The translations under genes and the position numbers were made by a program. Positions 1,210 through 54,394 of a stretch of DNA of 54,394 nucleotides are shown piece after piece. The DNA comes from a virus. Taxonomy: Duplodnaviria > Heunggongvirae > Uroviricota > Caudoviricetes. Within the stretch, counting starts at the first letter, position 1; each line of letters opens with the position of its first letter. The DNA lies in IMG/VR virus record IMGVR_UViG_2541047847_000004; one strand, 5' to 3'. The notes below the pieces were generated by a model. It searched no databases, was not told the DNA's origin, and saw only the letters and a list, made by a program, of their open reading frames with translations.

Positions 1210-1214
1210 GCTGA

Positions 1215-1237: not shown

Positions 1238-1243
1238 GTGTTC

Positions 1244-2895: not shown

Positions 2896-3852
<957 letters not shown>

Positions 3853-4464: not shown

Positions 4465-4490
4465 GGTAGATCTCCCTGACAAAAGCAGGA

Positions 4491-5641: not shown

Positions 5642-6053
5642 GCCATTCAATATCTGGCGCACTGGAAGTATCGACCAGCTCCAGTGCGTCCAGATAATCC
5701 AGCCACAAATTATATTGCGCCAGTTCCTCACCTTTCAGACGACCAATAGCCGCTTTACCAGCCCATTGTTTACTGTTCATATAATCGTTGGCCTGATTAA
5801 TCAATTGCTGCTTTTTCAGTTCGGCTGCAGCAATCTGTTCCTCATGTGTTGGTGGTGGAATTTCAGACCATGCAGGAAAACCATTTTCTCCAGCGATACG
5901 GATTTTTCCTTTCGGCGGTAATCCGGAAAACTCAATATACACTTGCTCATCAACTTCAACAGCATCATCTGGCCATGAGTCAGCTTGCGTGTAATCCTCT
6001 TTCATCTCCAAGGGATAGAAAGAGTTTGTAGTCGCGGAATATATGTAATTCAT
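5613..6053 (-). CDS. tfaP: Tail fibre assembly protein (TfaP-like)
   Basis: 146 aa downstream of the expressed fibre gene; 3' end overlaps tfaE convergently (5613-5641). Confidence 0.6.
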   Translation of the reverse strand: MNYIYSATTNSFYPLEMKEDYTQADSWPDDAVEVDEQVYIEFSGLPPKGKIRIAGENGFPAWSEIPPPTHEEQIAAAELKKQQLINQANDYMNSKQWAGKAAIGRLKGEELAQYNLWLDYLDALELVDTSSAPDIEWPTPPAVQAR

Positions 6054-6079
6054 TTTTCACTCCATAAAGTTAAAAGAAA

Positions 6080-6721
6080 TTAACACCCTAATGCGAAAAA
6101 TGAAGCACCGATACCGGGTACGCCTGCTCTGGAAATAAATTTCACCGGGTCCTGGTTATAACCGGCACAAGCTATATAGCCAACATTTGCACTGCCGGGA
6201 GTGTAATCCTGAGTCGCAAATACCCGCAGACATCTATTCGGAAATGCAATCGGAAAATAGGTTACTGTGTCCTGAGACGTCAGCGGAACATCAATTGGCC
6301 CCCATTGAATAATTAAACCGGATGGCAATTTTTGATATCCAGGAACTGAAGCAGAAAGCATAAAACTACCCATATCAGGTATCTGATTCGCCCCTGTCCC
6401 TACATTTCTTTTAGCCGCTTCTCCCAAACCAAGGTTTTCGAGAGCCGTTTTCACGGTGCCATCCGATTTGATATCGTCAAACGGATTCTTGCGGCTTAAC
6501 AGCAGCGCACGAAGCGCGGTAAGCAGCTGGTCATGCCGCCCCTTCTCCAGGCTGGCACCGGATGCCTCCACCACGCCACAAAGCTCTTCCTGCAACATGT
6601 CAAAGTAGTCATCATCCAGATCGGTGGCAGGCGTGCCAGTCTGGGGGTTACCACGGGTAAAACCGTTCTTACCCGCGCCGAACTTATCCTTCTGCGCGGT
6701 TTTCGTGTCTATACGATGCAT
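6080..6721 (-). CDS. stfP: Side tail fibre protein (StfP-like); C-terminal ~113 aa lie inside the invertible segment
   Basis: 213 aa; the crossover site encodes ENLGLGEA at the constant/variable junction. Confidence 0.7.
6418..6438. repeat. Right inversion crossover site
   Basis: cttctcccaaaccaaggtttt, inverted copy of 4526-4545, located inside stfP. Confidence 0.65.
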
Positions 6722-37516: not shown

Positions 37517-37762
37517 ATGTTGCTCCCGTGTGCAGACGGGATAATGGAGAAACGTATGCTGAACCTCGATTGTGTTCCTATCTCAACTTATTGCAAAGAA
37601 ACTGGCGAAACTCCTGAAGCAATAAACAAACGTGTACAGCGCGGTGTTTGGCGTGAAGGTGTTCAGGTTTTAAAGGTTGAAGGCGTTAAGGAGAGGTGGA
37701 TTGATCTTAGTGAGGTTGCAAAATGGGCCAGACAAAACTGCTCAAACTACCGCGCGGCGTAA
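37517..37762 (+). CDS. xis: Excisionase-like protein
   Basis: Small basic ORF directly upstream of and overlapping int; alternative start at 37556 (GGAG + 6 nt). Confidence 0.5.
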   Translation: MLLPCADGIMEKRMLNLDCVPISTYCKETGETPEAINKRVQRGVWREGVQVLKVEGVKERWIDLSEVAKWARQNCSNYRAA

Positions 37763-38895
37763 CAATCAGGAAACACCGCCAGGGAGAAACGATCAATATA
37801 ACTTTCACCTACAAAGGAGTTAGATGTCGTGAGCCGCTTTCCAATCTGGAAGTAACACCAAAGAACATTAAATACGCCGAGCGTACACTCGGCGAAATCC
37901 ATAATAAGATCGAAAGGGGAACATTCATTTATGCAGAATATTTTCCCCGTTCTGCTCGTTTGAAAATTTTTGGTAATGCTGCTGCAGGCAAAACGGTAAA
38001 GGTGTACCTGGACGAATATCTTGAAATCTGCGAAACAAGAAAACTTTCACCCTCTACGATTGGTGGCTATAAAAAATGCCGTAGTGCGTTAGCCTCACTT
38101 CACATTTGCCCTGCAAGTGAATTAACACCAGCAACCCTGAAAGCGTGGATTCAAAGCCAGAAAACAACCTTAAAAACCATTCGCAACCAGTTATCTTTCC
38201 TACGGTCAGCACTTGATGAAGCCGTGACCGATGGGGTACTTCAAATTAACCCCGTATCGTTAGTAACAGCTTCGCGCTACCAAAGTGATAAGTCAGAAGC
38301 AGAAAGCAGCTATGTGGTTGATCCGCTATCACCAGCAGAAGTTGATGCATTACTAGCAGCAGCCGGAAACAAACAATGGGAAAATCTGTTCCGGTTCGCC
38401 ATACATACAGGCCTGCGTAGTTCTGAATTATGTGCCCTACGATGGCATGATATCGACTTTGTTGGAAAAACAGCCCATGTTCAGAGCGCAAGTGTTGTCG
38501 GAGTTATCAAAGGAACAAAGACAAAAGCCGGTACCCGTAAAGTTGAACTGACTGAAGAAGCAATGTTGGCGTTGATAAACCAGAAGCCATTTACATTCAT
38601 GAAGGATGCTACTGTCTTTGAAGATCCAAAGACCAATAAACCCTGGGCAAGTGCTGATGCAATTAGGAAAAAAGCATGGGTGCCAACATTGCGAAAAGCA
38701 GGTATTCGTTACAGAAACCCATATCAAACCAGGCATACATTCGCCACCAGCCATATCAGCCGGGGAGCAAACCTGTTTTGGCTTGCGGCTCAAATGGGCC
38801 ATAAAGGGCCTGAAATGTTATTCAGGCACTATGGACAATACTTGAAAGAGTATGATGGGAGGGCAAGTATCAAGGATAAAAAGGCTTTATTTTAA
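37723..38895 (+). CDS. int: Tyrosine integrase (prophage)
   Basis: 390 aa; C-terminal R...H..R...Y catalytic pattern (HTFATSHISRGANLF...LGHKGPEMLFRHYGQY). Confidence 0.85.
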   Translation: MGQTKLLKLPRGVTIRKHRQGETINITFTYKGVRCREPLSNLEVTPKNIKYAERTLGEIHNKIERGTFIYAEYFPRSARLKIFGNAAAGKTVKVYLDEYLEICETRKLSPSTIGGYKKCRSALASLHICPASELTPATLKAWIQSQKTTLKTIRNQLSFLRSALDEAVTDGVLQINPVSLVTASRYQSDKSEAESSYVVDPLSPAEVDALLAAAGNKQWENLFRFAIHTGLRSSELCALRWHDIDFVGKTAHVQSASVVGVIKGTKTKAGTRKVELTEEAMLALINQKPFTFMKDATVFEDPKTNKPWASADAIRKKAWVPTLRKAGIRYRNPYQTRHTFATSHISRGANLFWLAAQMGHKGPEMLFRHYGQYLKEYDGRASIKDKKALF

Positions 38896-39504
38896 GTCAT
38901 TATGCCAATCGTCTACTGTTTGAAACCAAATTTTTAACCTTTGCATAAAGGTACGATCCTTTTTGGGAGGGTGGTACCTTTGAAAAGAAGTATGTAACGC
39001 TTCGATAACTCCCATACAAGCATCAATTACTTCTTGTGCTTTAACCGGGCGATCGGTATCTGAAAGCTTGTGAGCGACCTCACAATCCAGAGTTGCTTTC
39101 TCTAGTACAGATGAGAACACCTCGTCAGGTATATACAGTCCTCTGCTTTCCAAAATGCAAATCAGTTTGGAAACTTGTTGAGCTTTAGCCAAGATAGTTA
39201 ACAAGTATGAAACAGAAGCCTTTGTTCTATCCTTTTGCAACCTTAACAATCGATGCTTTGATGCTCTAATTTTAGGTTGAGTTGTCTGACTGAGCCAATA
39301 GTTAGAAGAAATATCAGAAATTTCAATAACTAACTTTGAAATAGCATCAATAATTGATTTCGATTCAGAACGTGTCGCCAGTTTTACAGAATTATTGTAC
39401 GCAACTCGCCATCCAATGAAAACTAAGCAGACGCTAACTACTGTGATACACCACGAATACTGTCCTATTTGTGCTACTAATGACATTGGTTCCGTACTGA
39501 TCAA
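38887..39504 (-). CDS. Membrane-anchored protein, third gene of GHKL operon
   Basis: 205 aa, single N-terminal TM helix (WCITVVSVCLVFIGW) then largely helical soluble part; 10-nt gap to upstream gene; 3' end overlaps int 3' end. Confidence 0.45.
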   Translation of the reverse strand: MISTEPMSLVAQIGQYSWCITVVSVCLVFIGWRVAYNNSVKLATRSESKSIIDAISKLVIEISDISSNYWLSQTTQPKIRASKHRLLRLQKDRTKASVSYLLTILAKAQQVSKLICILESRGLYIPDEVFSSVLEKATLDCEVAHKLSDTDRPVKAQEVIDACMGVIEALHTSFQRYHPPKKDRTFMQRLKIWFQTVDDWHNDLK

Positions 39505-39514
39505 CTATCGCCTC

Positions 39515-39841
39515 TTATACTCTTTCTGGTTGTGCTAAATCAATAAATTTATCAATCTGTTCTTTGTAGAACGGAACATCACTTTTTATAATCAAACGTG
39601 CTTTAACGTTGGCTTTAGGTATCCCTTCCTTACGGATGAGACCTCCAAACGCCTCTTCTAAGAAAGAGGAACCAACACCCAGTGCTATACCGCGAAAATC
39701 AACCACAATCTCCTGTTCAGTACCCTTCAGCGCAGGCACCAAAAACTCTCTACGAAATCTTTCCGCACTGTGTGGGCTATCCGTTGTGTAACGTCCGAAA
39801 GGTGTTCTGGAGAACTCCTTCGCTATGACGATATTTCTCAT
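39515..39841 (-). CDS. Small soluble protein, possibly STAS-like (DUF4325-type)
   Basis: 108 aa; 4-nt gap from upstream GHKL gene; family guess from memory of sequence pattern, unverified. Confidence 0.4.
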   Translation of the reverse strand: MRNIVIAKEFSRTPFGRYTTDSPHSAERFRREFLVPALKGTEQEIVVDFRGIALGVGSSFLEEAFGGLIRKEGIPKANVKARLIIKSDVPFYKEQIDKFIDLAQPERV

Positions 39842-39845
39842 AAAA

Positions 39846-40757
39846 TCATCTCCTGGGAACCAGCGACCATTGTAGTAAAGTACCCGGTATGTACTCAGCT
39901 AGCTTCTCACATCGAGGACTACTGTCATTAGAATTATAGCTATAACGAGCCCTTCCTGTTAGTATCAGAAGTGTCTCATTATCCTCACAACCTGCCCCAA
40001 TAGGTCTCTTGATATCTTCAGAGCCATTTCCCCGTCCGGAACCAACAAAGCGGGATTCCCCTACTAACATAGCTCTTTCCACAGAAGATACTTCGTTTTG
40101 AATGCTATGACCATCACCATTAGGCACGAAACTTCTATAAATCCCCAATCCAAGGTCACAAACGATAAAAACGACTTTATTTTCATCACGATTGAACCAA
40201 GCGCACTGCCACCATCGTTTACCTTTGAGAAGCTGAATATCTGACTCGAACCCCTCATCTTCATACGCATGATGAGAAACATTGAGCAAAGCTTCACTAA
40301 TCGCTGTCAGCAGTAAGCCTAACTGTTCATTATTAAGCAGAGCACTTTTCTGCAGCATGAGTACTGTTTCAACAATATGCTCGTAAGGTTCGACAGCTGA
40401 CTGAAAGTATCGTTCCTCCCTCGTAAGTGCATTCAGTTTCTCTTCTGTGCCAGCAAGCAAAGCACGAGCAAGTCCAGTACCAACGATCCATCTATGCCCA
40501 GATGGGTTATCATCCTTTTTAGGCCATTTAAAACGTATAAAATTAGGGTCCCGGGTTAAAAATTGAGCTCTATTTACTATGGCAAAGAACAGTACCGATG
40601 CCGCAGCTGAGGCAAATTTTACCTTGGACAAATCAACTATAACTCGACCTTTATTTTTTACTCCAATCGATTCAATCGAGTTGATGAAGTTCAATGTCCC
40701 AGCCCTAGAATCATCTGAGTAAATGCAAAATTTGCTTGGGGGTACCAGTATGGTCAT
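39846..40757 (-). CDS. GHKL-superfamily ATPase (histidine-kinase-like ATP-binding domain) with unassigned N-terminal region
   Basis: N-box SEALLNVSHHAY, G1 box VCDLGLGI, G2 box GSGRGNG in order in the C-terminal half; no HisKA/dimerisation domain or receiver visible. Confidence 0.55.
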   Translation of the reverse strand: MTILVPPSKFCIYSDDSRAGTLNFINSIESIGVKNKGRVIVDLSKVKFASAAASVLFFAIVNRAQFLTRDPNFIRFKWPKKDDNPSGHRWIVGTGLARALLAGTEEKLNALTREERYFQSAVEPYEHIVETVLMLQKSALLNNEQLGLLLTAISEALLNVSHHAYEDEGFESDIQLLKGKRWWQCAWFNRDENKVVFIVCDLGLGIYRSFVPNGDGHSIQNEVSSVERAMLVGESRFVGSGRGNGSEDIKRPIGAGCEDNETLLILTGRARYSYNSNDSSPRCEKLAEYIPGTLLQWSLVPRR

Positions 40758-40909
40758 AGCGATGTCATTCTTATACGATGGATTTATAGATTATCTACTA
40801 TTCATAGTTGGTTATGAAGACTGGGATATAACAGTAAAAGATACGTGTAAGATCCGCAAGATAGTTAATGTCGAAAAAAATCATTAATTACATCAAGTTA
40901 GTGATATTT

Positions 40910-40941
40910 GGACTCGGGTTCAACTCCCGCCAGCTCCACCA
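40910..40941 (+). repeat. ssrA: 3'-terminal fragment of tmRNA gene ssrA (attachment-site repeat)
   Basis: GGACTCGGGTTCAACTCCCGCCAGCTCCACCA matches the T-arm/acceptor 3' end of E. coli tmRNA; upstream sequence is unrelated AT-rich DNA, so only the att core is present. Confidence 0.7.
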
Positions 40942-41055
40942 CTTGCTCTTCCGGATACGTCCGGAGAAATCCTGAAAGCCCGCATGGCACAAGCTTTGCG
41001 GGCTTTTTTGTGTCTATCTTTGTCCGAGGATATCCAGCTAAATCCAGTGATTATT

Positions 41056-41103
41056 GGTATATGTTTAGGTATACGGTAAGATGTATACCTAAAAGCGTAT
41101 ACC
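41056..41103. repeat. Cluster of four GGTATAC motifs upstream of int (putative integrase arm-type sites)
   Basis: Two direct and two inverted GGTATAC copies; two further copies at 52640-52658 near the other element end. Confidence 0.35.
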
Positions 41104-41125
41104 AATACTCTGAGGTAGGATAATC

Positions 41126-42319
41126 GTGGCACGTACAACACGCCCTCTTACTAACACTGAACTATCACGTGCTAAAGCAACTGAAAAGGATCTAACGCTA
41201 CATGATGGTGATGGGCTTTTTCTACTCATAAAAACGAACGGAAGGAAGTTGTGGCGTTTCCGATACCAGAAGCCTGTATCAAAACAGAGAACCATGATTA
41301 GTTTAGGAACGTTCCCCGCCCTATCTCTGGCTGAGGCCAGAAACGTGCGTGCTGAGTATCTTTCCTTATTAGCCCGGGGTATTGATCCACAAACATACAG
41401 TAAGCAAGTCTCAGAACATCAACAGATTGCGATTGATAGTATTTTTTCAAAAGTTGCCACAAATTGGTTTGCCATAAAAAGCAATAACGTCACACCTGAT
41501 TATGCAAAGGATATATGGCGATCCTTAGAGAGGGACATTTTCCCTGCTATCGGTGAGATTCCTGTTCAGGAAATAAAAGCCCGCACATTAATTGAAGCCC
41601 TAGAGCCAATTAAAGCTCGTGGGGCACTTGAGACTGTTCGTCGTTTAGTACAACGTATTAATGAAATTATGATTTATGCTGTTAATACTGGTCTGATAGA
41701 TGCTAACCCTGCTTCAGGCATTGGTATGGCATTTGAAAAACCTAAAAAACAGCACATGCCAACGCTTAGACCTGAAGAATTACCGAAACTCATGCGTTCA
41801 ATAACAATGTCTAATTTATCTATTCCAACTCGTTGTTTGATTGAATGGCAACTCTTAACACTTGTACGCCCTGCAGAAGCTTCCAATGCAAAGTGGATAG
41901 AGATCGATTTCGAAGCTAAACTATGGATAATACCAGCCAATAGAATGAAGGCAAAGCGGGAACATATTGTTCCATTATCACTTCAGACATTAGATATTCT
42001 TGAAATTATGAAGCCAATCAGTTCACATCGAGAATATATTTTTCCTAGCAGGAATAACCCCAATCAACCAATGAACAGTCAGACGGCAAATGCAGCCTTA
42101 AAGCGCATCGGTTATGGTGGTAAGTTGGTTGCACACGGACTGCGTTCGATAGCAAGTACAGCAATGAATGAAGCTGGTATAAATCCAGATATTATCGAAG
42201 CAGCACTTTCCCATTGTGATAAAAATGAGGTTAGAAGAGCATATAATCGAACAACCTACTTGGAACAAAGAAAAGAGCTTATGAATTGGTGGGGTAGTTT
42301 CATTTCAAAAAACAAATAA
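41126..42319 (+). CDS. int: P4-type tyrosine integrase
   Basis: 397 aa from GTG; N-terminus MARTTRPLT...LHDGDGLFLLIKTNGRKLWRFRY typical of P4-family integrases next to ssrA. Confidence 0.9.
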   Translation: MARTTRPLTNTELSRAKATEKDLTLHDGDGLFLLIKTNGRKLWRFRYQKPVSKQRTMISLGTFPALSLAEARNVRAEYLSLLARGIDPQTYSKQVSEHQQIAIDSIFSKVATNWFAIKSNNVTPDYAKDIWRSLERDIFPAIGEIPVQEIKARTLIEALEPIKARGALETVRRLVQRINEIMIYAVNTGLIDANPASGIGMAFEKPKKQHMPTLRPEELPKLMRSITMSNLSIPTRCLIEWQLLTLVRPAEASNAKWIEIDFEAKLWIIPANRMKAKREHIVPLSLQTLDILEIMKPISSHREYIFPSRNNPNQPMNSQTANAALKRIGYGGKLVAHGLRSIASTAMNEAGINPDIIEAALSHCDKNEVRRAYNRTTYLEQRKELMNWWGSFISKNK

Positions 42320-42329
42320 GGATATAGTG

Positions 42330-43445
42330 ATGAATAATAAAGATTTTCCATGCAAAGCCTCAAATATCTATGATAAAAATATAAATTTTTTATTTGGCTC
42401 AGGCTCCTCTGCTTCATATATTCCTACTCTCTATCTAGATAAAAACACTACTTATGAAACATTACTTACACATGAGGATTGTGAGGGTGTCAAGGACTTC
42501 ATATTATGTTCTTATTTCAATAATATCATTAGAAAAACATTTTGTGTTAAACCTAATAGTGAAGACAAAAAATATAATTCTACTTTAGCAAACTATAGCT
42601 ACTTTATTGATGAACTAATCAAATTATTAGAGAAAAAAGGGGCAAATCAAATAAGGCGAGCGAATATTTTTACAACAAATTATGATCTTTTTTTCGAAAC
42701 TGCGGCTGATGATATTTTAAATAATAAAACATTTCATTTCAATGACGGTGGTCTAGGTTTCAAAAGCCGGAAATTGAACATTAGTAATTTTCATATTACT
42801 GCTTGGCATCAAGGTACGCATGATATGTACAAACATGAAATTCCAACAGTAAACTTAATAAAAATGCATGGTTCTGTTTCTTGGTGTAGAGATATTAATG
42901 AAACGATTAGTATTAATTACACTCAAGAAGAACCACCAAAGTTTAGACTAGATACAAAAAAAGACATTAATGATTTAGTCACCACCTTAAACGAAACAAG
43001 CGATAATCTCGTTAGTTATTTAAATTTATCTACAAGCGATCAAGAAACACTTCAAGAATTTAAATCTTATTACAACAACTTAGCTATAGTTAGCCCAACT
43101 AAAGAAAAATTTTCTGAAACTGTTTTTCAACAACATTATTACCAATGTTTACGATTGCTAAGTTATGAATTAGAGAAACCACAAACTGTATTAATTTGTT
43201 TTGGTTTTTCTTTTCAAGATGAACACATACGTGAGATTATAAAAAGATCATTAAGTAACCCTACTCTTAAGGTCTTTGTTTTTTGCTACTCAAAATCCAG
43301 CATGGAAAGTATACAGCACATTATCAATGACCAACGAATAACCTATATTCTTCCTATAGAAGATGATCATACAATTTCATTTAAACCGTTTATAGATAGA
43401 GTATTTAGATCTGAACACGGAGATTGGATTACATGGAAGAACTAA
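42330..43445 (+). CDS. SIR2-family NADase-like protein (defence pair with HerA)
   Basis: FLFGSGSS (Rossmann GxGxS), TTNYD and KMHGSVSW motifs characteristic of SIR2 domains; AT-rich; start at ATG 42330. Confidence 0.7.
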   Translation: MNNKDFPCKASNIYDKNINFLFGSGSSASYIPTLYLDKNTTYETLLTHEDCEGVKDFILCSYFNNIIRKTFCVKPNSEDKKYNSTLANYSYFIDELIKLLEKKGANQIRRANIFTTNYDLFFETAADDILNNKTFHFNDGGLGFKSRKLNISNFHITAWHQGTHDMYKHEIPTVNLIKMHGSVSWCRDINETISINYTQEEPPKFRLDTKKDINDLVTTLNETSDNLVSYLNLSTSDQETLQEFKSYYNNLAIVSPTKEKFSETVFQQHYYQCLRLLSYELEKPQTVLICFGFSFQDEHIREIIKRSLSNPTLKVFVFCYSKSSMESIQHIINDQRITYILPIEDDHTISFKPFIDRVFRSEHGDWITWKN

Positions 43446-45205
43446 TTGTTGGTAATGTTACCCAAATAAAGGGCACAACAGTAAGGGCCAAAATCAATCA
43501 TGACTTTTTTCAGTCAACATACTTTCATAAAGGTAAAATACTACGAGGTATCTCTATAAATGAATTTGTTTTGATTAAAAAAGGTTATCACGATATCGTC
43601 GGAAAGATTATTGGTGAAGAAATTGTTGAAAACATCAATATTAGAAGCGATGAAATTGAACAAAAAAAATATGACCGTTTTGTAGAACTGAATATTTTAG
43701 GGTATTTTTTTGAGAGTTCATTTTATTCCGGTATAAAATTTTTACCAATGATAAATGACAGCTTACACTTAATTTCAGACGAGAAGATATCAGAAATATA
43801 TAAGTTTAGCAAAAACACTAAAGCACCTTTAATAAACATAGGGAAATCTATGTTAGAGGAGTTGCCAATTAACATACCAATAAATGGTATTTTTAATTCA
43901 CACATAGGCATATTTGGAAACACTGGAAGTGGCAAGTCCAACACTCTTGCAAAACTTTATCACTCTCTAATAAACCTTATAACAACAAAAGAAAGAGTTA
44001 TATCAAAATCAAGTTTTGTTTTGATTGATTTTAATGGTGAATACAGCACATTTGCTACGTCATTTCCAGATTTGTGCGAACAAGTCAATCTCAACACAAA
44101 GAATTCCGGTGATAAACTAACTTTCACTGATGATGAATTTTGGGATGATGAATTATTATCGGTATTGTTTTCTGCAACTGAAAAAACTCAAAAGCCATTT
44201 CTTAGTCATTTAATTAAAAATAGAGAAAAATATAATGGTAAATTGGAGGATTACTTACAAACAACTATCCACAGTATGTTTTCTCCTAATCCACACAGGG
44301 AAACAATAAATTTATTAAAAAGCCTTGCCCCTTACTTTTCAGAGAGAGCACAGGGTAAAATACTTGAAGAGTTATCACAATTCTCATGGCATTCTGGGCA
44401 AAATAAGTATTTGCACTCAAAATACAACTTCATTGATAAAATGGAAGATGCTTTACAGGCTTTAGATGCAACATATAAATCCAAGTTTAAGTTAAACAGC
44501 GTTTTTGATGAAGTTGCAATCCGATCTATTCTACAACTAATTAATTCAGTATCACGTAATTATGTACAATATGATCATATATATCCGCTAATTAATAAAA
44601 TAACGGCAATGACTCCTGCCCTATCCAAAGTAATTAATATCAGAAACGAAACAAAAAATAAAAAACCTATATATATAGTGTCATTAAAAGAGTGCAATCA
44701 ATTAATCAAAAAAACCATTCCAATGATGCTTGCAAAATGTTCATTCTTAGAGCACAAGTCATCTAAAAATACAAAGGAAAGCTTCCACCTAATTATAGAT
44801 GAAGCACACAACATATTGTCTGAAACATCTGTCAGAGAGGCGGAAACATGGAAAGATTATAGGCTTGAGTTATTTGAGGAAATAATAAAAGAGGGAAGGA
44901 AGTTTGGGTTCTTCGTTACAATTTCGAGTCAACGACCTTTTGACATCTCTCCCACAATTGTTTCCCAACTTCATAATTATTTTATTCATCGATTAGTGAA
45001 CGAAAATGATTTGTTTTTGTTAAAAAATACTTTAAGCACCCTTGATGCGGCATCAAGATCACTAATTCCAACACTTCCTCCTGGTGGGTGTATAGTTTCA
45101 GGAACAGCTTTCCACACCCCATTACTTGTTCAAATCGACAGATTAGCTGAGGAAAATGCTCCTAACAGCGATACTCTTGATTTAGAAAAATTGTGGGATA
45201 TTTAA
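43433..45205 (+). CDS. herA: HerA-like ATPase
   Basis: Walker A GNTGSGKSN and Walker B HLIIDEAHN; overlaps SIR2 stop; start at ATG 43433 (track TTG 43424). Confidence 0.75.
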   Translation: MEELIVGNVTQIKGTTVRAKINHDFFQSTYFHKGKILRGISINEFVLIKKGYHDIVGKIIGEEIVENINIRSDEIEQKKYDRFVELNILGYFFESSFYSGIKFLPMINDSLHLISDEKISEIYKFSKNTKAPLINIGKSMLEELPINIPINGIFNSHIGIFGNTGSGKSNTLAKLYHSLINLITTKERVISKSSFVLIDFNGEYSTFATSFPDLCEQVNLNTKNSGDKLTFTDDEFWDDELLSVLFSATEKTQKPFLSHLIKNREKYNGKLEDYLQTTIHSMFSPNPHRETINLLKSLAPYFSERAQGKILEELSQFSWHSGQNKYLHSKYNFIDKMEDALQALDATYKSKFKLNSVFDEVAIRSILQLINSVSRNYVQYDHIYPLINKITAMTPALSKVINIRNETKNKKPIYIVSLKECNQLIKKTIPMMLAKCSFLEHKSSKNTKESFHLIIDEAHNILSETSVREAETWKDYRLELFEEIIKEGRKFGFFVTISSQRPFDISPTIVSQLHNYFIHRLVNENDLFLLKNTLSTLDAASRSLIPTLPPGGCIVSGTAFHTPLLVQIDRLAEENAPNSDTLDLEKLWDI

Positions 45206-45225
45206 TATCGCTACGCGCAGTGCTT

Positions 45226-45262
45226 TCCCCGCCTCGCCCGCACGCTTTGCGGGGCGGTTTTA
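45226..45262 (+). terminator. Intrinsic terminator after herA
   Basis: ccccgc...gcgggg stem followed by cggtttta; two further GC-rich hairpins at 45286-45309 and 45340-45374. Confidence 0.5.
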
Positions 45263-45402
45263 ATGCAGTTGCACTGACACGCTCAGACCGCGCCGGGAAT
45301 GGCGCGGTCTGCAGAAAATGAGGCAGGGAAACGCATGCAAAGCCATGCACCTTATCGATGCATGGCTTTTTTCAGTAAAAACAGGCGGATTTTCGGGAAA
45401 TT

Positions 45403-45975
45403 TTACACAGACTGACGTGATGCCAGTTGCGCACTTTTACGCGAAAAAATCATGTTCTGCGCAGGGGTAAATTTTTCACGGCTGTCGTCCACCGAAGCCG
45501 CGTCAGGCCTGAATCCGATGGTCGTTAAAATGTCGCTATCCTGTGCGGAATAATTAATTTTTTCCCCCTTCGCAAGCCAGGACAGAAGGGCTTCACGCAG
45601 GGCATCTGTGGCACGCTGTATGGCACAGTTTCGGGCAATGGCCGTCAGCTCACTGTAGCCCATCAGCTCCGGTGCCAGTGCCGCCGCCAGTGCTGTGCCG
45701 TGCTGCTGCATAAAATCATTCAGCCGGTCGCGGATGCTGATGTGCTGAACGGCTTCATGCGAACGAATATAACGACCAGCGGCCTGATTCACCTGCCATT
45801 TTCTGACTTCGATAATATTGCGTAATTCGTCCAGGCGACTGACGTTTCTGCCTTCTCCTGACAGAAGCCGCAGATATTCCTGTTCGGCCGCTGCCAGCTC
45901 ATTTTTGCGTTGCAGCCATGCTGCTTTGTTATTCTGACAGGTGTCAAAGGCCTGCTGTAAGGCTGTGCTTTCCAT
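45403..45975 (-). CDS. psu: Polarity suppression protein Psu
   Basis: 190 aa, same length and position as P4 Psu in the sid-delta-psu block. Confidence 0.75.
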   Translation of the reverse strand: MESTALQQAFDTCQNNKAAWLQRKNELAAAEQEYLRLLSGEGRNVSRLDELRNIIEVRKWQVNQAAGRYIRSHEAVQHISIRDRLNDFMQQHGTALAAALAPELMGYSELTAIARNCAIQRATDALREALLSWLAKGEKINYSAQDSDILTTIGFRPDAASVDDSREKFTPAQNMIFSRKSAQLASRQSV

Positions 45976-46048
45976 CGTTATCTCTTTCTCATCATGCTGA
46001 AGAATAAAAATACGGTGTGCGGCGACGGCCGGTGTTAACCGGCAGCCC

Positions 46049-46549
46049 TCATTCCAGACGCAGCGAATATGATTGTGTTTTTAAGCGTACTGGCGGCAGT
46101 TCCTGTTTTTCATGCAGGCTTTCTGCCAGTTCGTCCGGCGTGACCGGGCGGACAATGAAACGGTTGATGGTCTGAAGCGTTTTAAACACCAGACCACAGC
46201 CCGGATCCGTGCACACATAAAAACGCTCGGTGACTTCCTGAGACAGACGCCGCGATGTTCTTGACAGTGCAAGGCCTTTACATCTCCGACAACAATATCC
46301 GGTAACAAGCATTCTTTTCGGGCGTTTCATACTGCCGGAGGCTGACGTCAGTGAATCGCGGTATCTCTGTTTGCCTGAAATGTATTCCATTCCTGAATCT
46401 TTACTGTCAGAGAAAAAGCTTTCACTCGCTTCAAATGTCGCAGAGCAATAAATATTCCGGCACTGTGCAATCATTATCTTGGTGCCATCGTCCATGAAAT
46501 GTGCGCGGCGGGTGTGAGCAACATGACCACACGACGGGCAGTAAATCAT
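46049..46549 (-). CDS. delta: Delta (Ogr/Delta zinc-finger late transcription activator)
   Basis: 166 aa with two CxxC...CxxC units (CPSCGH...C...C and CCRRCKG...CTDPGC). Confidence 0.75.
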   Translation of the reverse strand: MIYCPSCGHVAHTRRAHFMDDGTKIMIAQCRNIYCSATFEASESFFSDSKDSGMEYISGKQRYRDSLTSASGSMKRPKRMLVTGYCCRRCKGLALSRTSRRLSQEVTERFYVCTDPGCGLVFKTLQTINRFIVRPVTPDELAESLHEKQELPPVRLKTQSYSLRLE

Positions 46550-47280
46550 GACAGCAGTCCTCTGGCCTTAAGCACTGCTCCCTGCTGGTCTATTTTGTCC
46601 TGCCACACCTTGCGCTGTGCCGGTGTGCCTGCCACCTCATAATCCATGTGAGGAAGTGTTGCCGCTGACAGTCCGGTCAGCCGGAGAACCGGCTCGCCGG
46701 TGAGGCTGATTTGCATCTGTTTAATTTTCTGTTCCAGCGATGATTTCACCTGCTGCATGACAGCCTTTTCCGGTGCGACGTAGCCCTGATGGCCGGTGGT
46801 GTTGGCGAGCGGATTTTCCTGTACCAGAATGCTCAGATGCATTGCCCGGACAAGCGCCTCACAGGTTTCATTCAGGGCGTGTTCCAGCTCATGCTCTGCA
46901 TACAGACTCAGAAGGTGATGATGTGCCTTCCGGTAGGCGGTGGCCGTGCTGTCACACGCCCCTTTCAGGCGTTCGCGTTCAAAATTCAGCACCACGGCCA
47001 GATTGTCATATTCCTGTACCAGTTCCCGGCGTGCCACGCGCTCAATGTGGCGCTGTTTCAGCTCGTCGCTCAGGACACCACCGGCTGCACGAAAGGCCGT
47101 GCGCCAGTCGTCAGCGTCGTTTCCGTCGGCCTGCGCCAGCGCATTTTTTTCCTGCTCTGCCCGTTCAATGGCCGTGACGGTCTCATCCATCAGGCGGGCG
47201 TTCTCAAGATGGGCGGCTCTGGCCTTTTCCAGTTGTGCCAGTGCGGGTTGCAGATATTCAGGGATGGTGTTGTCAGACAT
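46546..47280 (-). CDS. sid: Capsid size determination protein Sid
   Basis: 244 aa from ATG 47280; upstream of delta with overlapping stop/start. Confidence 0.7.
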   Translation of the reverse strand: MSDNTIPEYLQPALAQLEKARAAHLENARLMDETVTAIERAEQEKNALAQADGNDADDWRTAFRAAGGVLSDELKQRHIERVARRELVQEYDNLAVVLNFERERLKGACDSTATAYRKAHHHLLSLYAEHELEHALNETCEALVRAMHLSILVQENPLANTTGHQGYVAPEKAVMQQVKSSLEQKIKQMQISLTGEPVLRLTGLSAATLPHMDYEVAGTPAQRKVWQDKIDQQGAVLKARGLLS

Positions 47281-47449
47281 TTTCCGGCTCCTCGTCACTT
47301 CAGGTTAAGAAAATTGTGACGTACACCGGACAACAACACGACGCATTGCAGATGTGCCAGCCCTGACACAGGAGACTCATCCTCAGACCGGCAAGCCAGG
47401 AAAAGGTCGCAGGAAAAACCGGCTTACTGTTTGTTTTTTTATATTTTAC

Positions 47450-47553
47450 TGTTCACCTCTGTTCACCATAAGAAAAAAGACAAGTAATACAGTAAGTTAA
47501 ATGGTGAACAATCGCAGTAATGACTGTTCACCGTCTGTTCACCACTGTTCACC
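47450..47553. repeat. TGTTCACC iteron cluster (P4 crr/ori-type alpha-binding sites)
   Basis: Six TGTTCACC octamers (five direct, one inverted) within ~100 bp. Confidence 0.6.
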
Positions 47554-47880
47554 CGTTGATGGGCTTTTTGTGCTGTTTATTACTGTTTGTTTTTATTAAT
47601 TCGCCGGGAATGAATAAGAAAAAACGATTTGTATTTCACTATAAAAATTACGAATTGCTTTAAGTGGCTTTAAATGACTTTAAGTGGAGATGAACAAAAA
47701 ACACACAAGCATTATAAGACTGCCGGAACAAATCCCCCCTGTTGCGTCTGCTGAAAATATTCACAAAATAAAGCGCTACCCGAAGCCGGACGGACTTATC
47801 CGGTGCTGTATGGACATTAACGAGGTAGCCCGATGCAAGCTGTTTTTTCTTCCCCGTCTCCCGCCCCTGTGACGCCACTG

Positions 47881-48099
47881 ATGCCGCTGCCGGACATCAC
47901 GCAGGAGCGTTTTTTACGTCTGCCGGAAGTGATGCACCTGTGCGGCCTGTCACGCTCGACCATCTATGAACTCATCCGTAAGGGGGAATTTCCGCCGCAG
48001 GTGAGTCTTGGCGGTAAAAATGTGGCCTGGCTGCACTCTGAAGTCACTGCATGGATGGCCGGGCGCATTGCCGGACGCAAACGGGGGTACGACGCATGA
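47881..48099 (+). CDS. AlpA-family transcriptional regulator (Vis-like)
   Basis: [31 protein letters not shown] typical of AlpA; start set to ATG 47881. Confidence 0.6.
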
Positions 48100-48497
48100 T
48101 GATGCCCGCTCTGCAAAAACGCCCTTTTTCTGGCTTGCCTTTTTCCGGCATTTGCGGATATAGTTTTTCCGCTGCCGCAAAATCGGCAGCCGGGCGTGGA
48201 AACCCGAGCAATTCACAGGCGACATATGACGCGCCATGCGTCTTTTTTTGTGTCGCAATCAACGCCACAGAGCGCCAGATTATGGTGTGGTGTGTGGTCA
48301 GTCGTGCAGATGGCATTCCGTGCATCCTGCCCGCGTCCGCTCATTATGCCGCAGAGTCAATGGTAGCTCAGGCGGGGCAGCCTCCGGGCTGGCCGGTATC
48401 CTGTGAAGCCGGTATTTCCACCCCCGTCTGGGCTATCGCCATCGAGCGTGGAAACTCCGGCGATAGCGTTATTTGCTATTCACAGGAGGCTGCCATC

Positions 48498-48695
48498 ATG
48501 GCTACAACCCTTACCCCCTCACACCCTGAATTTGTCTTTGTGTTTGCGGCTGTCCGTCGCGCAGACCGTCATCCCCGTATCTGTATGCTTCGCACCGTCG
48601 CCGGTGATGAACGCAGTGCCCGCCGTTCCCTTGTCCGTGACTATGTGCTCTCCCTTGCTGCCCGTCTGCCGGTGGTGGAGGTGTCCCGTGCGTAA
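48498..48695 (+). CDS. Icd-like small protein
   Basis: 65 aa from ATG 48498 (AGGAGG upstream); in-frame with a longer track ORF that I consider an artefact. Confidence 0.4.
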
Positions 48696-48975
48696 TAAAA
48701 AAGCCCCTCAGACCGTCTCAGCGCGTCATGACGCCCGTGAACACCTCAGCATTGAGGCTTACCATAAGCTCAACCGCGCCAGCGCCGTATCCCGGTTTGT
48801 TGGGGGTGATTTGATTCACCGTGAACTCTCCGGCCTGCATCAGCTCTACATTCCGCATATTTTCAGCTACCTGAATGAAGATATTGATTTTGTGCTGAAT
48901 GAGCTGAAAGCCAAAGGCCTGTGCCGCGATTTTCTCGCCCAGCAGAAAGACCGGGGAGACAGGACGCATGTTTGA
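48688..48975 (+). CDS. Hypothetical 95-aa protein (epsilon-like by position)
   Basis: GTG start with GGAGG 7 nt upstream, overlaps preceding stop; position equivalent to P4 epsilon. Confidence 0.35.
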
Positions 48976-49423
48976 TTTTCCCCAGCCCGGTGAGATTTAC
49001 CGTTCTGCCGGTTTTCCCGATGTGGCCGTGGTCGGCATTCTGGAAGACGGTATTCCGTGGGAAATGCCGTACCGCTGCCCGGACATTGTCTGGAACCCGT
49101 ACCGCCGTAAATTCAGTATCCTTGTGCGTATCCTCGCTGACGGGCGCACCACAGACATCCCGCTGGGGCGTTTTCTGCGGGAATTTACCTGTGACCGTCC
49201 TGACCTGTTTAAACGCAGCCCCGTAAACCGGCATGCGGTACTGAAAGAAATGGCCGGAGACCCGGAATTACAGAAATGGCGGGAGAAATATCTGGATATT
49301 TACCCGCAGGACACTGTTCCGGCCAGCCGGGCGGCACCGGTGGCGCGGGAATGGCGGGAAATTCCCCGCACGGAGCCTGACCCGGAAATCACCCCGGATA
49401 ACAGTTACCGCAATTATCTGTAA
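48968..49423 (+). CDS. Hypothetical 151-aa protein (P4 orf151-like by size and position)
   Basis: Translationally coupled to upstream gene; upstream of alpha. Confidence 0.45.
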   Translation: MFDFPQPGEIYRSAGFPDVAVVGILEDGIPWEMPYRCPDIVWNPYRRKFSILVRILADGRTTDIPLGRFLREFTCDRPDLFKRSPVNRHAVLKEMAGDPELQKWREKYLDIYPQDTVPASRAAPVAREWREIPRTEPDPEITPDNSYRNYL

Positions 49424-49558
49424 TTAAAAAACGACACCCGAAAAATTAAATGTGCGTATTCGCGCAGGGATACGCACGTCTTCAGGAGACGCAGATATGC
49501 CTTATCAGTTAATGCAACCGGCACGGAATGCAGTCATCTGTCACAGGGAGGAAAGCAA

Positions 49559-49879
49559 ATGAAAACACCCTTACCGCCCGTCTTACGCGCTGCCCTTTAC
49601 CGTCGCGCTGTCGCCTGTGCCTGGCTGACCGTGTGCGAACGTCAGCACCGCTACCCGCATCTCACCCTTGAGTCACTGGAGGCGGCCATCGCCGCTGAGC
49701 TGGAAGGCTTTTATCTGCGCCAGCACGGTGAGGAAAAAGGGCGTCAGATAGCCTGTGCCCTGCTGGAAGATTTAATGGAATCCGGCCCCCTGAAGGCCGC
49801 GCCGTCGCTGTCCTTTCTCGGGCTGGTTGTGATGGATGAACTCTGTGCCCGTCACATAAAAGCGCCGGTACTGCACTGA
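49559..49879 (+). CDS. Hypothetical 106-aa protein
   Basis: ORF with AGGGAGGA RBS immediately upstream of alpha. Confidence 0.4.
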
Positions 49880-49893
49880 AGGAGAACAACACC

Positions 49894-52227
49894 ATGAAAA
49901 TGAACGTAACCGCCACCGTCAGCCATGCGCTCGGCCACTGGCCGCGTATTCTCCCGGCGCTGGGGATTCAGGTGCTGAAGAACCGTCATCAGCCCTGTCC
50001 GGTCTGTGGCGGGAGTGACCGCTTCCGTTTTGATGACAGGGAGGGGCGTGGCACCTGGTACTGCAATCAGTGTGGTGCCGGTGACGGCCTGAAACTGGTT
50101 GAAAAGGTGTTTGGTGTTTCCCCGTCCGACGCGGCCGCAAAGGTGGCTGCCGTGACCGGCAGCCTGCCACCGGCTGACCCGGCAGTGACGGCCGCCGCCG
50201 TTGCTGAAACAGAAGCCGCCCGGAAGAACGCCGCCGCACTGGCACAAACCCTGATGGCGAAAACCCGTCCCGGAACCGGTAACGCCTACCTGACCCGCAA
50301 GGGCTTTCCCGGCCGGGAATGCCGGATGCTGACCGGCACACACAGAGCCGGTGGCGTGAGCTGGCGCGCCGGTGACCTTGTGGTGCCACTGTATGACGAC
50401 AGCGGCGAACTGGTTAACCTTCAGTTAATCAGTGCTGACGGCCGTAAGCGCACCCTGAAAGGCGGACAGGTCAGGGGCACCTGTCACATCCTTGAAGGAC
50501 AGAATCAGACCGGAAAACGTCTGTGGATAGCGGAGGGATACGCGACCGCACTTACCGTGCATCACCTGACCGGTGAAACGGTGATGGTGGCGCTTTCTTC
50601 CGTGAACCTCCTTTCTCTGGCCAGCCTTGCCCGGCAGAAGCATCCGGCCTGTCAGATTGTCCTTGCCGCAGACCGTGACCTCAGCGGTGACGGCCAGAAA
50701 AAAGCCGCCGCAGCCGCAGATGCGTGTGAAGGTGTTGTTGCCCTGCCGCCGGTCTTCGGTGACTGGAATGATGCCTTCACGCAGTACGGCGGGGAAGCCA
50801 CCCGTAAGGCCATTTACGATGCCATCCGGCCACCGGCTGAAAGCCCGTTCGACACCATGAGCGAAGCGGAGTTTTCCGCCATGAGTACCAGCGAAAAGGC
50901 CATGCGTATCTATGAGCATTACGGCGAGGCGCTCGCGGTCGATGCCAACGGCCAGCTTCTGTCCCGCTATGAAAATGGTGTCTGGAAGGTGCTGCCGCCA
51001 CAGGACTTTGCCCGGGATGTGGCCGGGCTGTTTCAGCGGCTGCGCGCGCCGTTCTCCTCCGGGAAGGTGGCCTCCGTGGTGGACACCCTGAAGCTGATTA
51101 TTCCGCAGCAGGAAGCCCCCTCCCGCCGCCTGATTGGCTTTCGTAACGGCGTGCTCGACACGCAGAACGGCACGTTCCACCCGCACAGTCCGTCACACTG
51201 GATGCGCACCCTGTGCGATGTGGATTTCACCCCACCGGTGGAAGGGGAAACGCTGGAAACCCACGCCCCCGCGTTCTGGCGCTGGCTTGACCGTGCCGCC
51301 GGTGGCCGTGCGGAAAAACGCGACGTGATTCTGGCCGCACTGTTTATGGTGCTGGCAAACCGCTACGACTGGCAGCTCTTTCTGGAGGTGACCGGTCCCG
51401 GCGGCAGCGGCAAAAGTATCATGGCCGAAATAGCCACCCTGCTGGCCGGGGAGGATAACGCCACGTCGGCCACCATTGAGACGCTGGAATCCCCGCGTGA
51501 ACGTGCCGCGTTAACTGGCTTCTCACTGATACGCCTGCCGGACCAGGAAAAATGGAGCGGCGACGGTGCCGGACTCAAGGCCATCACCGGCGGCGATGCG
51601 GTGTCCGTGGACCCGAAATACCGGGATGCGTACTCCACGCATATCCCGGCGGTGATTCTGGCCGTGAACAATAACCCGATGCGCTTCACCGACCGCAGCG
51701 GCGGCGTGTCACGCCGGCGGGTGATTATTCACTTCCCGGAACAGATAGCCCCGCAGGAGCGCGACCCGCAGCTTAAGGACAAAATCACCCGCGAGCTGGC
51801 GGTCATCGTGCGTCACCTGATGCAGAAATTCAGCGACCCGATGCTCGCCCGGTCACTGCTTCAGTCCCAGCAGAACTCAGACGAGGCGCTGAACATCAAA
51901 CGGGATGCCGACCCGACGTTTGATTTTATCGGCTATCTGGAAACCCTGCCGCAGACCAGCGGCATGTATATGGGGAACGCCAGTATCATCCCGCGCAATT
52001 ACCGTAAATACCTCTATCACGCCTATCTGGCCTACATGGAGGCAAACGGCTACCGGAATGTACTCAGTCTGAAAATGTTCGGGCTGGGGCTGCCGGTGAT
52101 GCTGAAGGAATACGGACTGAATTACGAGAAGCGCCATACCAAACAGGGGATACAGACCAACCTGACGCTGAAAGAGGAAAGCTACGGCGACTGGCTGCCA
52201 AAATGTGACGACCCTGCGACAGCCTGA
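49894..52227 (+). CDS. alpha: Alpha primase-helicase (P4 alpha-like)
   Basis: 777 aa: N-terminal Zn-binding CPVCGG...CNQCG, TOPRIM-like region, P-loop VTGPGGSGKS. Confidence 0.9.
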   Translation: MKMNVTATVSHALGHWPRILPALGIQVLKNRHQPCPVCGGSDRFRFDDREGRGTWYCNQCGAGDGLKLVEKVFGVSPSDAAAKVAAVTGSLPPADPAVTAAAVAETEAARKNAAALAQTLMAKTRPGTGNAYLTRKGFPGRECRMLTGTHRAGGVSWRAGDLVVPLYDDSGELVNLQLISADGRKRTLKGGQVRGTCHILEGQNQTGKRLWIAEGYATALTVHHLTGETVMVALSSVNLLSLASLARQKHPACQIVLAADRDLSGDGQKKAAAAADACEGVVALPPVFGDWNDAFTQYGGEATRKAIYDAIRPPAESPFDTMSEAEFSAMSTSEKAMRIYEHYGEALAVDANGQLLSRYENGVWKVLPPQDFARDVAGLFQRLRAPFSSGKVASVVDTLKLIIPQQEAPSRRLIGFRNGVLDTQNGTFHPHSPSHWMRTLCDVDFTPPVEGETLETHAPAFWRWLDRAAGGRAEKRDVILAALFMVLANRYDWQLFLEVTGPGGSGKSIMAEIATLLAGEDNATSATIETLESPRERAALTGFSLIRLPDQEKWSGDGAGLKAITGGDAVSVDPKYRDAYSTHIPAVILAVNNNPMRFTDRSGGVSRRRVIIHFPEQIAPQERDPQLKDKITRELAVIVRHLMQKFSDPMLARSLLQSQQNSDEALNIKRDADPTFDFIGYLETLPQTSGMYMGNASIIPRNYRKYLYHAYLAYMEANGYRNVLSLKMFGLGLPVMLKEYGLNYEKRHTKQGIQTNLTLKEESYGDWLPKCDDPATA

Positions 52228-52234
52228 CCCACCT

Positions 52235-52259
52235 GACCGGCATCTGCCGGTCTTTTTTT
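52235..52259 (+). terminator. Intrinsic terminator after alpha
   Basis: gaccggc-atct-gccggtc followed by seven T. Confidence 0.6.
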
Positions 52260-52269
52260 ATCCCTGAAT

Positions 52270-52590
52270 TCCCCGAAGGTGAACAATCCACTGTTCACCC
52301 TTCACCGTATATTCACCTGTTATCACACTGAAATTAAAAGAGAAAAACGAAAGGTGAACAGTGTGAACAATCAAATCAAAAAAAACTTTTTTTCTCCCTG
52401 TGTGATTTCAGTACGGGGGATTAATCACCGGTATGAGTCACACCGGCAGAATGCCGGAGGTGAAGAATCGAATGTTCACCCTTCACCCATTATTCACCAC
52501 CTATCATACTGAAATAAAAGGAGAAAAAAGAAAGGTGAACAGTGTGAACAGTTCTTTCGAAAAAAAATTTTTTTTCTGTACGATATAGCA
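52270..52590. repeat. Origin-like region: two ~95-bp direct repeats each containing TGTTCACC/GGTGAACA iterons and flanked by A/T runs
   Basis: Units at 52278-52372 and 52459-52553 are near-identical. Confidence 0.55.
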
Positions 52591-52712
52591 TCAATCCAAG
52601 TAAAAATGCGCTTTCATTTCACATTAACTTACAGCCATTGGTATACGATTAGGTATACGTACAAAAACTGAATTAAACAAAATCATTAAAAATCAAAACA
52701 ATACAGCATTTA

Positions 52713-52734
52713 TTCAAACTCCGCCAGCCCACCA
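52713..52734 (+). repeat. Diverged copy of the ssrA 3' end (probable attR of the P4-like element)
   Basis: TTCAAACTCCGCCAGCCCACCA vs TTCAACTCCCGCCAGCTCCACCA at 40919-40941. Confidence 0.4.
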
Positions 52735-52861
52735 ATCATGATTGGACGGTGTAAGGACTACACCAACAAAAACAGGAAGTTATAAGTCTCAGCAGGACAC
52801 CGACCAGACGGTGAGGAGACAAAAAAGGATACGCAACGGAGTCGCGACTCCCTATGACATT

Positions 52862-52890
52862 AAAGCCCGCTGATGCGGGCTTTTTTATTG
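52862..52890 (+). terminator. Intrinsic terminator
   Basis: aaagcccgc-tgat-gcgggcttt followed by ttttatt. Confidence 0.5.
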
Positions 52891-53317
52891 GTCCTGACCC
52901 GCCCTGAATAGAATTCATCCAATTACAGTCCAGACATATACAGTATCCCTCAGCTCAGTATCAGCTTCTCGACAAATGGTCACTGTTATTTACCCGTTGC
53001 CAGAAAGAGAATAATTTGCCCCCATAGCCAGCCTTCCCGGAATCTGTATATTCATTAATATTGTTATCGATTCCATCAAGTAACATAGGTTGGATGCGAT
53101 TGATCTTACTCACATTAGTCGACACGGAACTCAGTAAGTTGAACTCTGGAAAAGCAGTTTAAATAGCATTTAAACAAATGCCACCAGTTCGAAAAAGAGT
53201 ATAAGCACACTTAATATATTGTTTTAATTATTCATTTCCTTTCAACCCAATTCTTATCCCTCACATTATTTGTTATTAATTTGTTGTTTTTGATCACAAT
53301 AAGAAAACAATATGTAA

Positions 53318-54394
<1,077 letters not shown>

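Follow-up and report, generated by a model that had tools for sequence, protein, structure and literature searches.

Near the right-hand end of a prophage, in a 54,394-nt stretch of viral DNA (Caudoviricetes, IMG/VR record IMGVR_UViG_2541047847_000004; the whole stretch is hereafter called the window), the last 32 bases of the tmRNA gene ssrA occur without the rest of the gene. How did the end of a bacterial RNA gene come to lie between two integrase genes, and where is the gene to which it belongs? The features on which the answer depends are listed below, in window coordinates; in the sequences given in the text, a slash marks a junction.

1–40909, no strand assigned: SfV-like lambdoid myovirus prophage, with its left end (about 233 bp of left arm) beyond the window
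1–3852: left-end prophage cargo, an EcoRII-type restriction enzyme, a C5 cytosine methyltransferase and PD-T4-3 (GIY-YIG protein), from PADLOC
37517–37762, plus strand: prophage excisionase (phrog_2917, E 8e-45)
37723–38895, plus strand: LLS-type tyrosine integrase, ssrA-specific (Arm-DNA-bind_2 and Phage_integrase domains)
38887–40757, minus strand: three-gene cargo cassette separating the integrase from the right attachment site
40760–40909, plus strand: prophage right arm, 150 bp, always followed by GGACTCGGG...
40910–40941, plus strand: ssrA 3′ fragment, very probably displaced, core of the prophage right and satellite left attachment sites
40915–40941, within the fragment: 27-bp identity block with ssrA
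40929–40934, within the fragment: GCCAGC, putative crossover region for the IntA-type integrase
40935, within the fragment: counterpart of T357
40942–41125, plus strand: satellite left arm, which adjoins the CCA end of an intact ssrA in 12 satellite-bearing loci
40974–41007, in the satellite left arm: terminator hairpin, then a T run (fold –32.4 kcal/mol, z –4.4)
41056–41105, in the satellite left arm: probable arm-type repeats, T[AT]GGTATA[CT]G
41126–42319, plus strand: IntA-type (P4-subfamily) integrase (Arm-DNA-bind_3, Phage_int_M and Phage_integrase domains)
42327–45205, plus strand: SIR2-HerA anti-phage system in the integrase-to-psu cargo slot (PADLOC, SIR2 E 4e-65, HerA E 1e-192)
45403–47298, minus strand: psu, delta and sid (Pfam Psu and Ogr_Delta, PHROG matches, RefSeq names)
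47833–52227, plus strand: alpA, an Icd/ASH-type gene, C4/isrK RNAs and the alpha primase-helicase
48158–48443: C4 and isrK immunity RNAs (Rfam)
49894–52227, plus strand: alpha primase-helicase
52638–52659, plus strand: probable arm-type repeats of the satellite right arm
52713–52734, plus strand: satellite right attachment core, a scarred ssrA 3′ end without T357 (TTCAAACTCCGCCAGCCCACCA)
52735–52885, plus strand: native ssrA 3′ trailer, where the chromosome resumes (terminator at 52862–52883)
53417–54394, plus strand: glaH (csiD), a core chromosomal gene

An ssrA 3′ end between a prophage and a P4-like satellite

The 32 bases at 40910–40941 (GGACTCGGGTTCAACTCCCGCCAGCTCCACCA) are a genuine leftover end of ssrA between the prophage and the satellite. 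Compared with the full E. coli gene of a related genome, which served as the reference, they match positions 332–363 at 31 of 32 bases (blastn-short E 2.6e-10), the lone mismatch being a T instead of a G at 40914. The exact 26-mer of the fragment is found at this one place in the window and did not turn up in any of 100 shuffles, and the Rfam tmRNA model aligned its 3′ end there as a 5′-truncated match (35.8 bits against a gathering threshold of 47, E 4.8e-13), with high posterior probability limited to the final ~35 nt. Neither ARAGORN nor Rfam at the gathering threshold found a complete tmRNA gene in the window. Domain searches place the prophage integrase and three cargo genes upstream of the fragment and the P4-type integrase downstream. 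The first-pass annotation had described about 32 nt of the tmRNA 3′ end without a full gene, flanked by prophage cargo and a P4-type integrase, and is thus borne out; it had also asked whether the fragment might be a chance match. Only the shortness of the 32-mer speaks for a chance resemblance or an unrelated structured element, and the identity to ssrA, the shuffles, the Rfam E-value and the conserved position of the sequence at an element boundary in many genomes make that reading vanishingly improbable. The fragment lies on the plus strand, in the orientation of glaH and of ssrA in all compared genomes, so that the island boundary carries a target-gene 3′ fragment in gene orientation, as looked for by Islander.

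The prophage upstream encodes an HK97-type head, a Mu-type contractile tail and a lambdoid early region, and its 16000–40900 portion is 97% identical over 66–68% to Escherichia phages vB_EcoM-689R6 and 720R4. The name SfV-like stands for lambdoid Myoviridae (PMC3603311), the type to which this prophage belongs. A prophage of the same kind is annotated in strain 0-4 between ssrA and a 32-nt fragment. The integrase is assigned to the LLS type by its 86% identity to the integrase of phage LLS and by the right arm and 27-bp ssrA block found downstream of int and the cargo. The right arm is present at ≥99% identity in 130 of 5,426 complete E. coli genomes (2.4%), as a single copy in each.

The cassette at 38887–40757 encodes proteins of 303 aa (weak HATPase_c_2 match), 108 aa (STAS-like DUF4325) and 205 aa (domainless); all three match PHROGs of unknown function only, and no match was found in PADLOC, NCBIfam or PDB sequences. 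This stretch looks like a variable cargo slot, since it holds DarT and NADAR in ETEC1717 and one gene in LLS, and the three-gene cassette may be a so far undescribed module for defence or partner switching. At the other end of the prophage, the cargo slot of strain 0-4 holds unrelated genes, and the module of EcoRII-type restriction-modification genes and PD-T4-3 is likewise carried by prophages elsewhere in the chromosome (L034, L045 and L047). A pin-type invertase adjoins oppositely oriented tail-fibre and tail-fibre-assembly genes at 3910–6721; the prophage probably has an invertible host-range segment here.

To the right of the fragment, a complete P4-like satellite occupies about 40942–52734 (11.8 kb). 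All seven genes of the P4-like core set (int, psu, delta, sid, alpA, epsilon/ASH and alpha) are present in P4 order; Psu, Ogr_Delta, Phage_AlpA, Phage_ASH and primase domains were identified with Pfam, and sid is backed by a PHROG match and the RefSeq name "capsid size-determining scaffold Sid". Domain architecture and family model (NF007246, 599.5 bits for a cut-off of 434) both assign the integrase to the IntA type, and it is 62% identical over its full length to K-12 IntA of CP4-57. The left arm of the satellite was found in 271 of the 5,426 complete genomes (5.0%). The terminator scan made no call at the hairpin of this arm, whose loop is too long for the scan, and the hairpin was revealed by folding. 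Six matches to TAGGTATACG (≤1 mismatch) occur in the window, five of them in the two satellite arms, and six were reached in 0 of 100 shuffles; these decamers are probably arm-type sites for the N-terminal arm-binding domain of the integrase. In relatives H54 and H55, the integrase-to-psu cargo slot contains other genes.

No P2-type genes were found in the window, and the prophage beside the satellite is not P2-like. Elsewhere, in L019 (1–5816), the same satellite integrase is immediately preceded by a P2/186-like prophage with a CI repressor and a P2-type integrase, an array in which a candidate helper and its satellite are possibly found together.

The satellite right end, the trailer and the intact gene

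The sequence at 52713–52734 gave no match to ssrA alone in a blastn-short search and is not significant by itself. At the position of the ssrA CCA end it meets a 700-bp stretch that matches, at 99.3% identity, the DNA downstream of ssrA in an empty-site strain. A core like it terminates the same satellite in ten loci and also terminates K-12 CP4-57, whose right attachment site (TTCAGACTCCGCCAGC-CCACCA/ATCATGATTGG) is nearly identical, and the satellite stops at the CCA position whichever of three sequences comes next, the native trailer, a phage trailer or the arm of another island. The copy noted at the far end of the satellite is therefore real and corresponds to the satellite right attachment site, on the strength of its flank and of the same core elsewhere. 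Its description as a diverged copy is right in that it derives from ssrA but not in implying random divergence, since the left part (TTCAAACTCC) is the satellite's own arm and the right part (GCCAGC-CCACCA) is a host-side remnant with the known T357-deletion scar.

This T357-deletion scar is known for P4-type integrases, and the scars of ssrA islands fall into exactly three classes, -CCACCA, ----CCA and -----CA (PMC10107115 Table 1). In keeping with the IntA type, the satellite is inserted at the very 3′ end of ssrA, and its damaged right cores in the compared loci read GCCAGC-CCACCA, -CCA or -CA, in agreement with these classes. Comparison of the scar sites (window 52723–52734; L037 12820; L039 12820; L040 7609; L004 19817) showed that satellites 99.9–100% identical in DNA nevertheless differ after GCCAGC: near-identical satellites carry CCACCA in the window, L040 and L038, CCA in L037 and CA in L039. 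As all three classes occur among nearly identical satellites, the right-attachment scar is hypervariable, and it seems to be either remade at each integration or prone to slip. Separately, a transposase and a beta-lactamase gene lie between the satellite right attachment site and glaH in L039 (13232–17267).

Beyond the scar, the 151 bp at 52735–52885 agree at every base with the DNA downstream of ssrA in FDAARGOS_536, an empty-site strain (100% identity). This stretch was also considered as a left arm of the prophage, since it follows intact ssrA in lysogens; it would then have implied a satellite inside a phage attachment site or a second prophage further on. That assignment was rejected: the empty-site strain has the exact sequence between ssrA and glaH, and the prophage copy is only ~90% identical. 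A trailer of ~151 nt occurs in 2,409 of the 5,426 E. coli genomes, with ≤4 copies per genome, in variants of 88–100% identity, one of them native and the others in the attachment arms of ssrA-integrating phages and islands (copies were also noted in L003 from 12928, L010 from 2528 and L036 from 487). The trailer folds well (z –4.0) and has a terminator at its end; the Rfam search returned only sub-threshold chance matches for it and thus no family.

The identity of this trailer bears on whether the satellite might sit within the phage's own attachment site and travel as part of the phage genome. Such a site, with its ssrA 3′ end and trailer-like sequence, is a potential target. However, the trailer after the satellite right site is the native version, identical to that of the empty-site strain rather than the ~90% phage version, and runs into glaH, while the prophage has an HK97-type head and a Mu-type tail and lacks P2-type helper genes. 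A helper-embedded satellite is therefore very improbable.

Where, then, is the intact gene? The order smpB-ssrA-(islands)-glaH is kept in all compared E. coli genomes, and the related genomes WL164, strain 0-4 and HS have an intact target gene at the opposite end of the array. In strain WL164, and in six of ten contexts with the identical restriction-enzyme gene, ssrA ends 234 bp upstream of the gene with which the window opens (position 1). By comparison with these genomes, the intact ssrA would lie to the left of the window, in the simplest case about 234 bp before position 1, although a further island could be present between ssrA and the prophage, as in ETEC1717. Reading leftward from position 1, the expected sequence would be 82 bp, the phage-version trailer of ~151 bp (GGACAACACC...GTTAGCAGTC), an intact ssrA ending in ...GGACGCGGGTTCAACTCCCGCCAGCTCCACCA, and smpB. 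In L012 and L016 (1–5816), the ssrA-satellite junction is preceded by genes for a giant BapA-type adhesin and type I secretion and not by smpB, so that the DNA before ssrA seems to have been rearranged, or to have received an insertion, in these genomes.

Two attachment systems, the order of arrival and its consequences

The prophage and satellite integrases are unrelated (21% identity over a partial alignment). The proposal that prophage and satellite are inserted in tandem at ssrA stands, but not the part that they use the same att site, as these integrases go with identity blocks that differ in length and position. Each member has its own integrase and its own fragment, as in the arrays described by Islander: 37723–38895 goes with 40910–40941, and 41126–42319 with 52713–52734.

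In lysogens, the left and right attachment sites of the prophage share the 27 bp CGGGTTCAACTCCCGCCAGCTCCACCA, which correspond to 40915–40941 in the window. The T at 40914 is kept in all right attachment sites of this prophage; this T, like the imperfect match to ssrA on its 5′ side, comes from the phage, which places strand exchange 3′ of 40914, probably in the T-loop. The satellite shares with ssrA only CCGCCAGC plus CCACCA. This 8-mer is common to the left and right satellite sites (40927–40934 in the fragment), and the left site invariably reads ...CCACCA/CTTGCTCTTCC. The shared 8-mer and the experimental observation that CP4-57 excision yields an ssrA without T357 (PMC10107115) suggest that the IntA-type exchange occurs within CCGCCAGC, in the acceptor arm. 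A satellite crossover 3′ of T357, for which the absence of this T from all right sites might speak, is disfavoured by the same CP4-57 product (PMC10107115); exchange would then be 5′ of T357, and the missing bases would represent integration or excision damage.

Taken together, the 32-nt stretch is very probably a displaced ssrA 3′ end in a two-element tandem array at the tmRNA gene. The proposed layout would run from ssrA (left of the window) through the prophage, the 32-nt fragment, the P4-like satellite, the scarred core and the native trailer to glaH. The fragment would act as a compound site: joined to the prophage arm on the left it is the prophage right attachment site, and joined to the satellite arm on the right it is the satellite left attachment site. 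The LLS-type integrase would use the 27-bp block of ssrA identity from the T-stem to the CCA end, and the IntA-type integrase would leave its typical damaged copy at the right attachment site. Each element has a terminator of its own for ssrA. Each integration would also recreate a usable target, so that arrays can form in either order.

Either element should also be able to excise alone, and the predicted products match satellite-only and prophage-only states found in nature. Loss of the satellite would give a circle with the junction ...TTATTCAAACTCCGCCAGCTCCACCACTTGCTC... and a chromosome reading ...GGACTCGGGTTCAACTCCCGCCAGC-CCACCAATCATG..., and loss of the prophage would give a circle with the junction ...GATATTTGGACTCGGGTTCAACTCCCGCCAGCTCCACCAATCATGATTGG... 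and a chromosome reading ...GGACGCGGGTTCAACTCCCGCCAGCTCCACCACTTGCTC..., as in L037. The following related states were found in other E. coli genomes.

Empty site: smpB-ssrA/ATCATGATTGG... trailer-glaH, in FDAARGOS_536
Satellite only: ssrA-satellite-glaH, in strain E5, and in L037 and 18 similar contigs
Prophage only: prophage-fragment-native trailer-glaH, in L021 and 27 similar places
Prophage, then a different IntA-type island: prophage-fragment-island, in strains 0-4 and F8
Opposite order: ssrA-satellite-scar-prophage, in ETEC1717
Same satellite integrase behind a P2/186-like prophage: prophage-45-nt ssrA fragment-satellite, in L019

Searches for the exact junction of the window in the 5,426 complete E. 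coli genomes, the GTDB representatives and the JGI metagenome contigs gave no match, and the contexts of the identical integrase, cargo protein, primase and restriction enzyme showed related states but never the window's own. Only about six genomes with both the prophage arm and the satellite arm are expected by chance, which makes this rarity unremarkable. The absence of the junction from all collections searched, and the presence of the repeat at several places in such loci, would also be compatible with an assembly chimera across the short ssrA-derived repeat. However, the shared repeat of 27–32 nt is below usual assembly k-mers, two false joins would be required starting from the order seen in ETEC1717, the flanks and boundaries fall exactly where site-specific recombination predicts, and analogous prophage-fragment-element junctions with other partners exist in L019, strain 0-4 and P15-385. 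We therefore regard a chimera as quite unlikely.

As to which element arrived first, the most parsimonious history is that the satellite was established beside ssrA and that the prophage integrated between them later, since 19 of the 24 contigs with the identical primase carry the satellite alone next to ssrA. Over the 13.4 kb corresponding to 40942–54394, L037 differs from the window by one SNP and by the CCA indel in the right-attachment core. Because L037 has CCA where the window has CCACCA, descent from an L037-like ancestor by addition of the prophage would need one extra event. The reverse history, in which the prophage entered an empty ssrA and the satellite later used the displaced 32-nt fragment rather than the functional gene, is a reasonable but less favoured alternative. 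It leads to the same final structure, the fragment retains a perfect CCGCCAGCTCCACCA target, prophage-only lysogens occur, and the scar difference from L037 hints at a separate integration event. On the other hand, the satellite alone next to an intact ssrA is the common state of this lineage, and a prophage-first order would require the IntA-type enzyme to use a target without ssrA sequence 5′ of the T-stem.

The order of the elements in the array, whichever arrived first, might matter physiologically. In K-12, tmRNA loses T357 and its function when the IntA-type CP4-57 excises (PMC10107115). As the prophage separates the satellite from the functional ssrA in the window, excision of the satellite should spare tmRNA and scar the displaced fragment instead, with the predicted junction GGACTCGGGTTCAACTCCCGCCAGC-CCACCA/ATCATG. 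If the prophage crossover is in the T-loop, later excision of the prophage would carry this scar into ssrA, making prophage loss costly. That the damage at T357 is thus relayed through an array by successive excisions is a tentative proposal, which we consider somewhat less probable than its converse. The prophage right attachment site reads ...CCCGCCAGC-----CA/ATCATG in prophage-only lysogens and ...CCCGCCAGC-CCACCA in ETEC1717, and these CA and CCACCA scars are consistent with the relay.

Six of the loci, L021, L022, L026 and L028–L030, have the prophage right site ...CTCCCGCCAGC-----CA/ATCATG (at about 4822, minus strand). Such a footprint is consistent with the expected trace of an earlier downstream island that excised from a tandem array; given a T-loop crossover, prophage excision in L021-type lysogens would put the tmRNA-inactivating deletion into ssrA.

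Comparison with known systems

The feature described here is an ordinary, well-formed case, as it is established that several integrase families act at ssrA, that the elements form tandem arrays and bring terminators with them, and that attachment sites are damaged. It is a worked example of two unrelated integrases sharing the end of one RNA gene, with arrays in either order, and no new kind of system. Its use is that the boundaries are now fixed (the prophage extends to the fragment, the satellite covers about 40942–52734, and chromosomal sequence starts again at 52735), that the defence cargo can be assigned (SIR2-HerA to the satellite; the restriction-modification pair, PD-T4-3 and the uncharacterized three-gene cassette to the prophage), and that exact predicted junctions for excision are available. 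In his "Traffic at the tmRNA gene" of 2003, Williams reportedly described several integrase subfamilies using ssrA in enterobacteria, a P4-subfamily integrase that routinely damages its attachment sites, and a conserved ssrA terminator carried by each element.

The closest relative of the satellite boundary is that of CP4-57, the K-12 island integrated at ssrA by IntA, with the psaA fragment. In both, the integrases being 62% identical, the element begins immediately behind the CCA end of ssrA and brings a terminator hairpin, the right core reads TTCA(G/A)ACTCCGCCAGC-CCACCA followed by the ATCATGATTGG trailer, and the T357-deletion scar is present. Unlike CP4-57, a cryptic island of 22 kb, the element in the window is a complete 11.8-kb P4-like satellite and abuts the displaced fragment rather than the functional ssrA. 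With satellite P4 it shares int, psu, delta, sid, alpA, an epsilon/ASH-type gene, the alpha primase and a C4-type immunity RNA. P4 integrates at leuX, whereas the window satellite targets ssrA and carries SIR2-HerA in its cargo slot.

The prophage resembles phage LLS in its integrase (86% identity), in its lambdoid early region and in an attachment site that combines the ssrA 3′ end with ~150 bp resembling the trailer and terminator. In the free phage LLS, int, one gene, the ssrA 3′ end and the trailer-like stretch of ~150 bp are contiguous, as expected of a phage attachment site. This site contains 29 bp of the ssrA 3′ end; the authors describing LLS deduced integration at the 3′ end of ssrA and noted a convergence with CP4-57 (PMC12315714). 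Unlike LLS, which has a lambda-like tail and a single gene between int and the attachment site, the window prophage has a Mu-type contractile tail and three cargo genes at that place.

The tmRNA locus is hotspot #9 of E. coli, where prophages of several groups, P4-like satellites and mobilisable elements with defence systems are reported (Hochhauser et al. 2023, PMC10121019). The window fits this description with SIR2-HerA, the EcoRII-type restriction-modification pair and PD-T4-3 as its defence cargo; the specific junction of the window does not appear in that survey (Hochhauser et al. 2023, PMC10121019). More generally, the array agrees with those found at tRNA and tmRNA genes by Islander, in which ssrA is the most enriched target and each member has its own integrase and its own target fragment (PMC4383910). 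Compared with these known tandem arrays, the one in the window is the same in kind, and only the particular pair of elements and their order differ.
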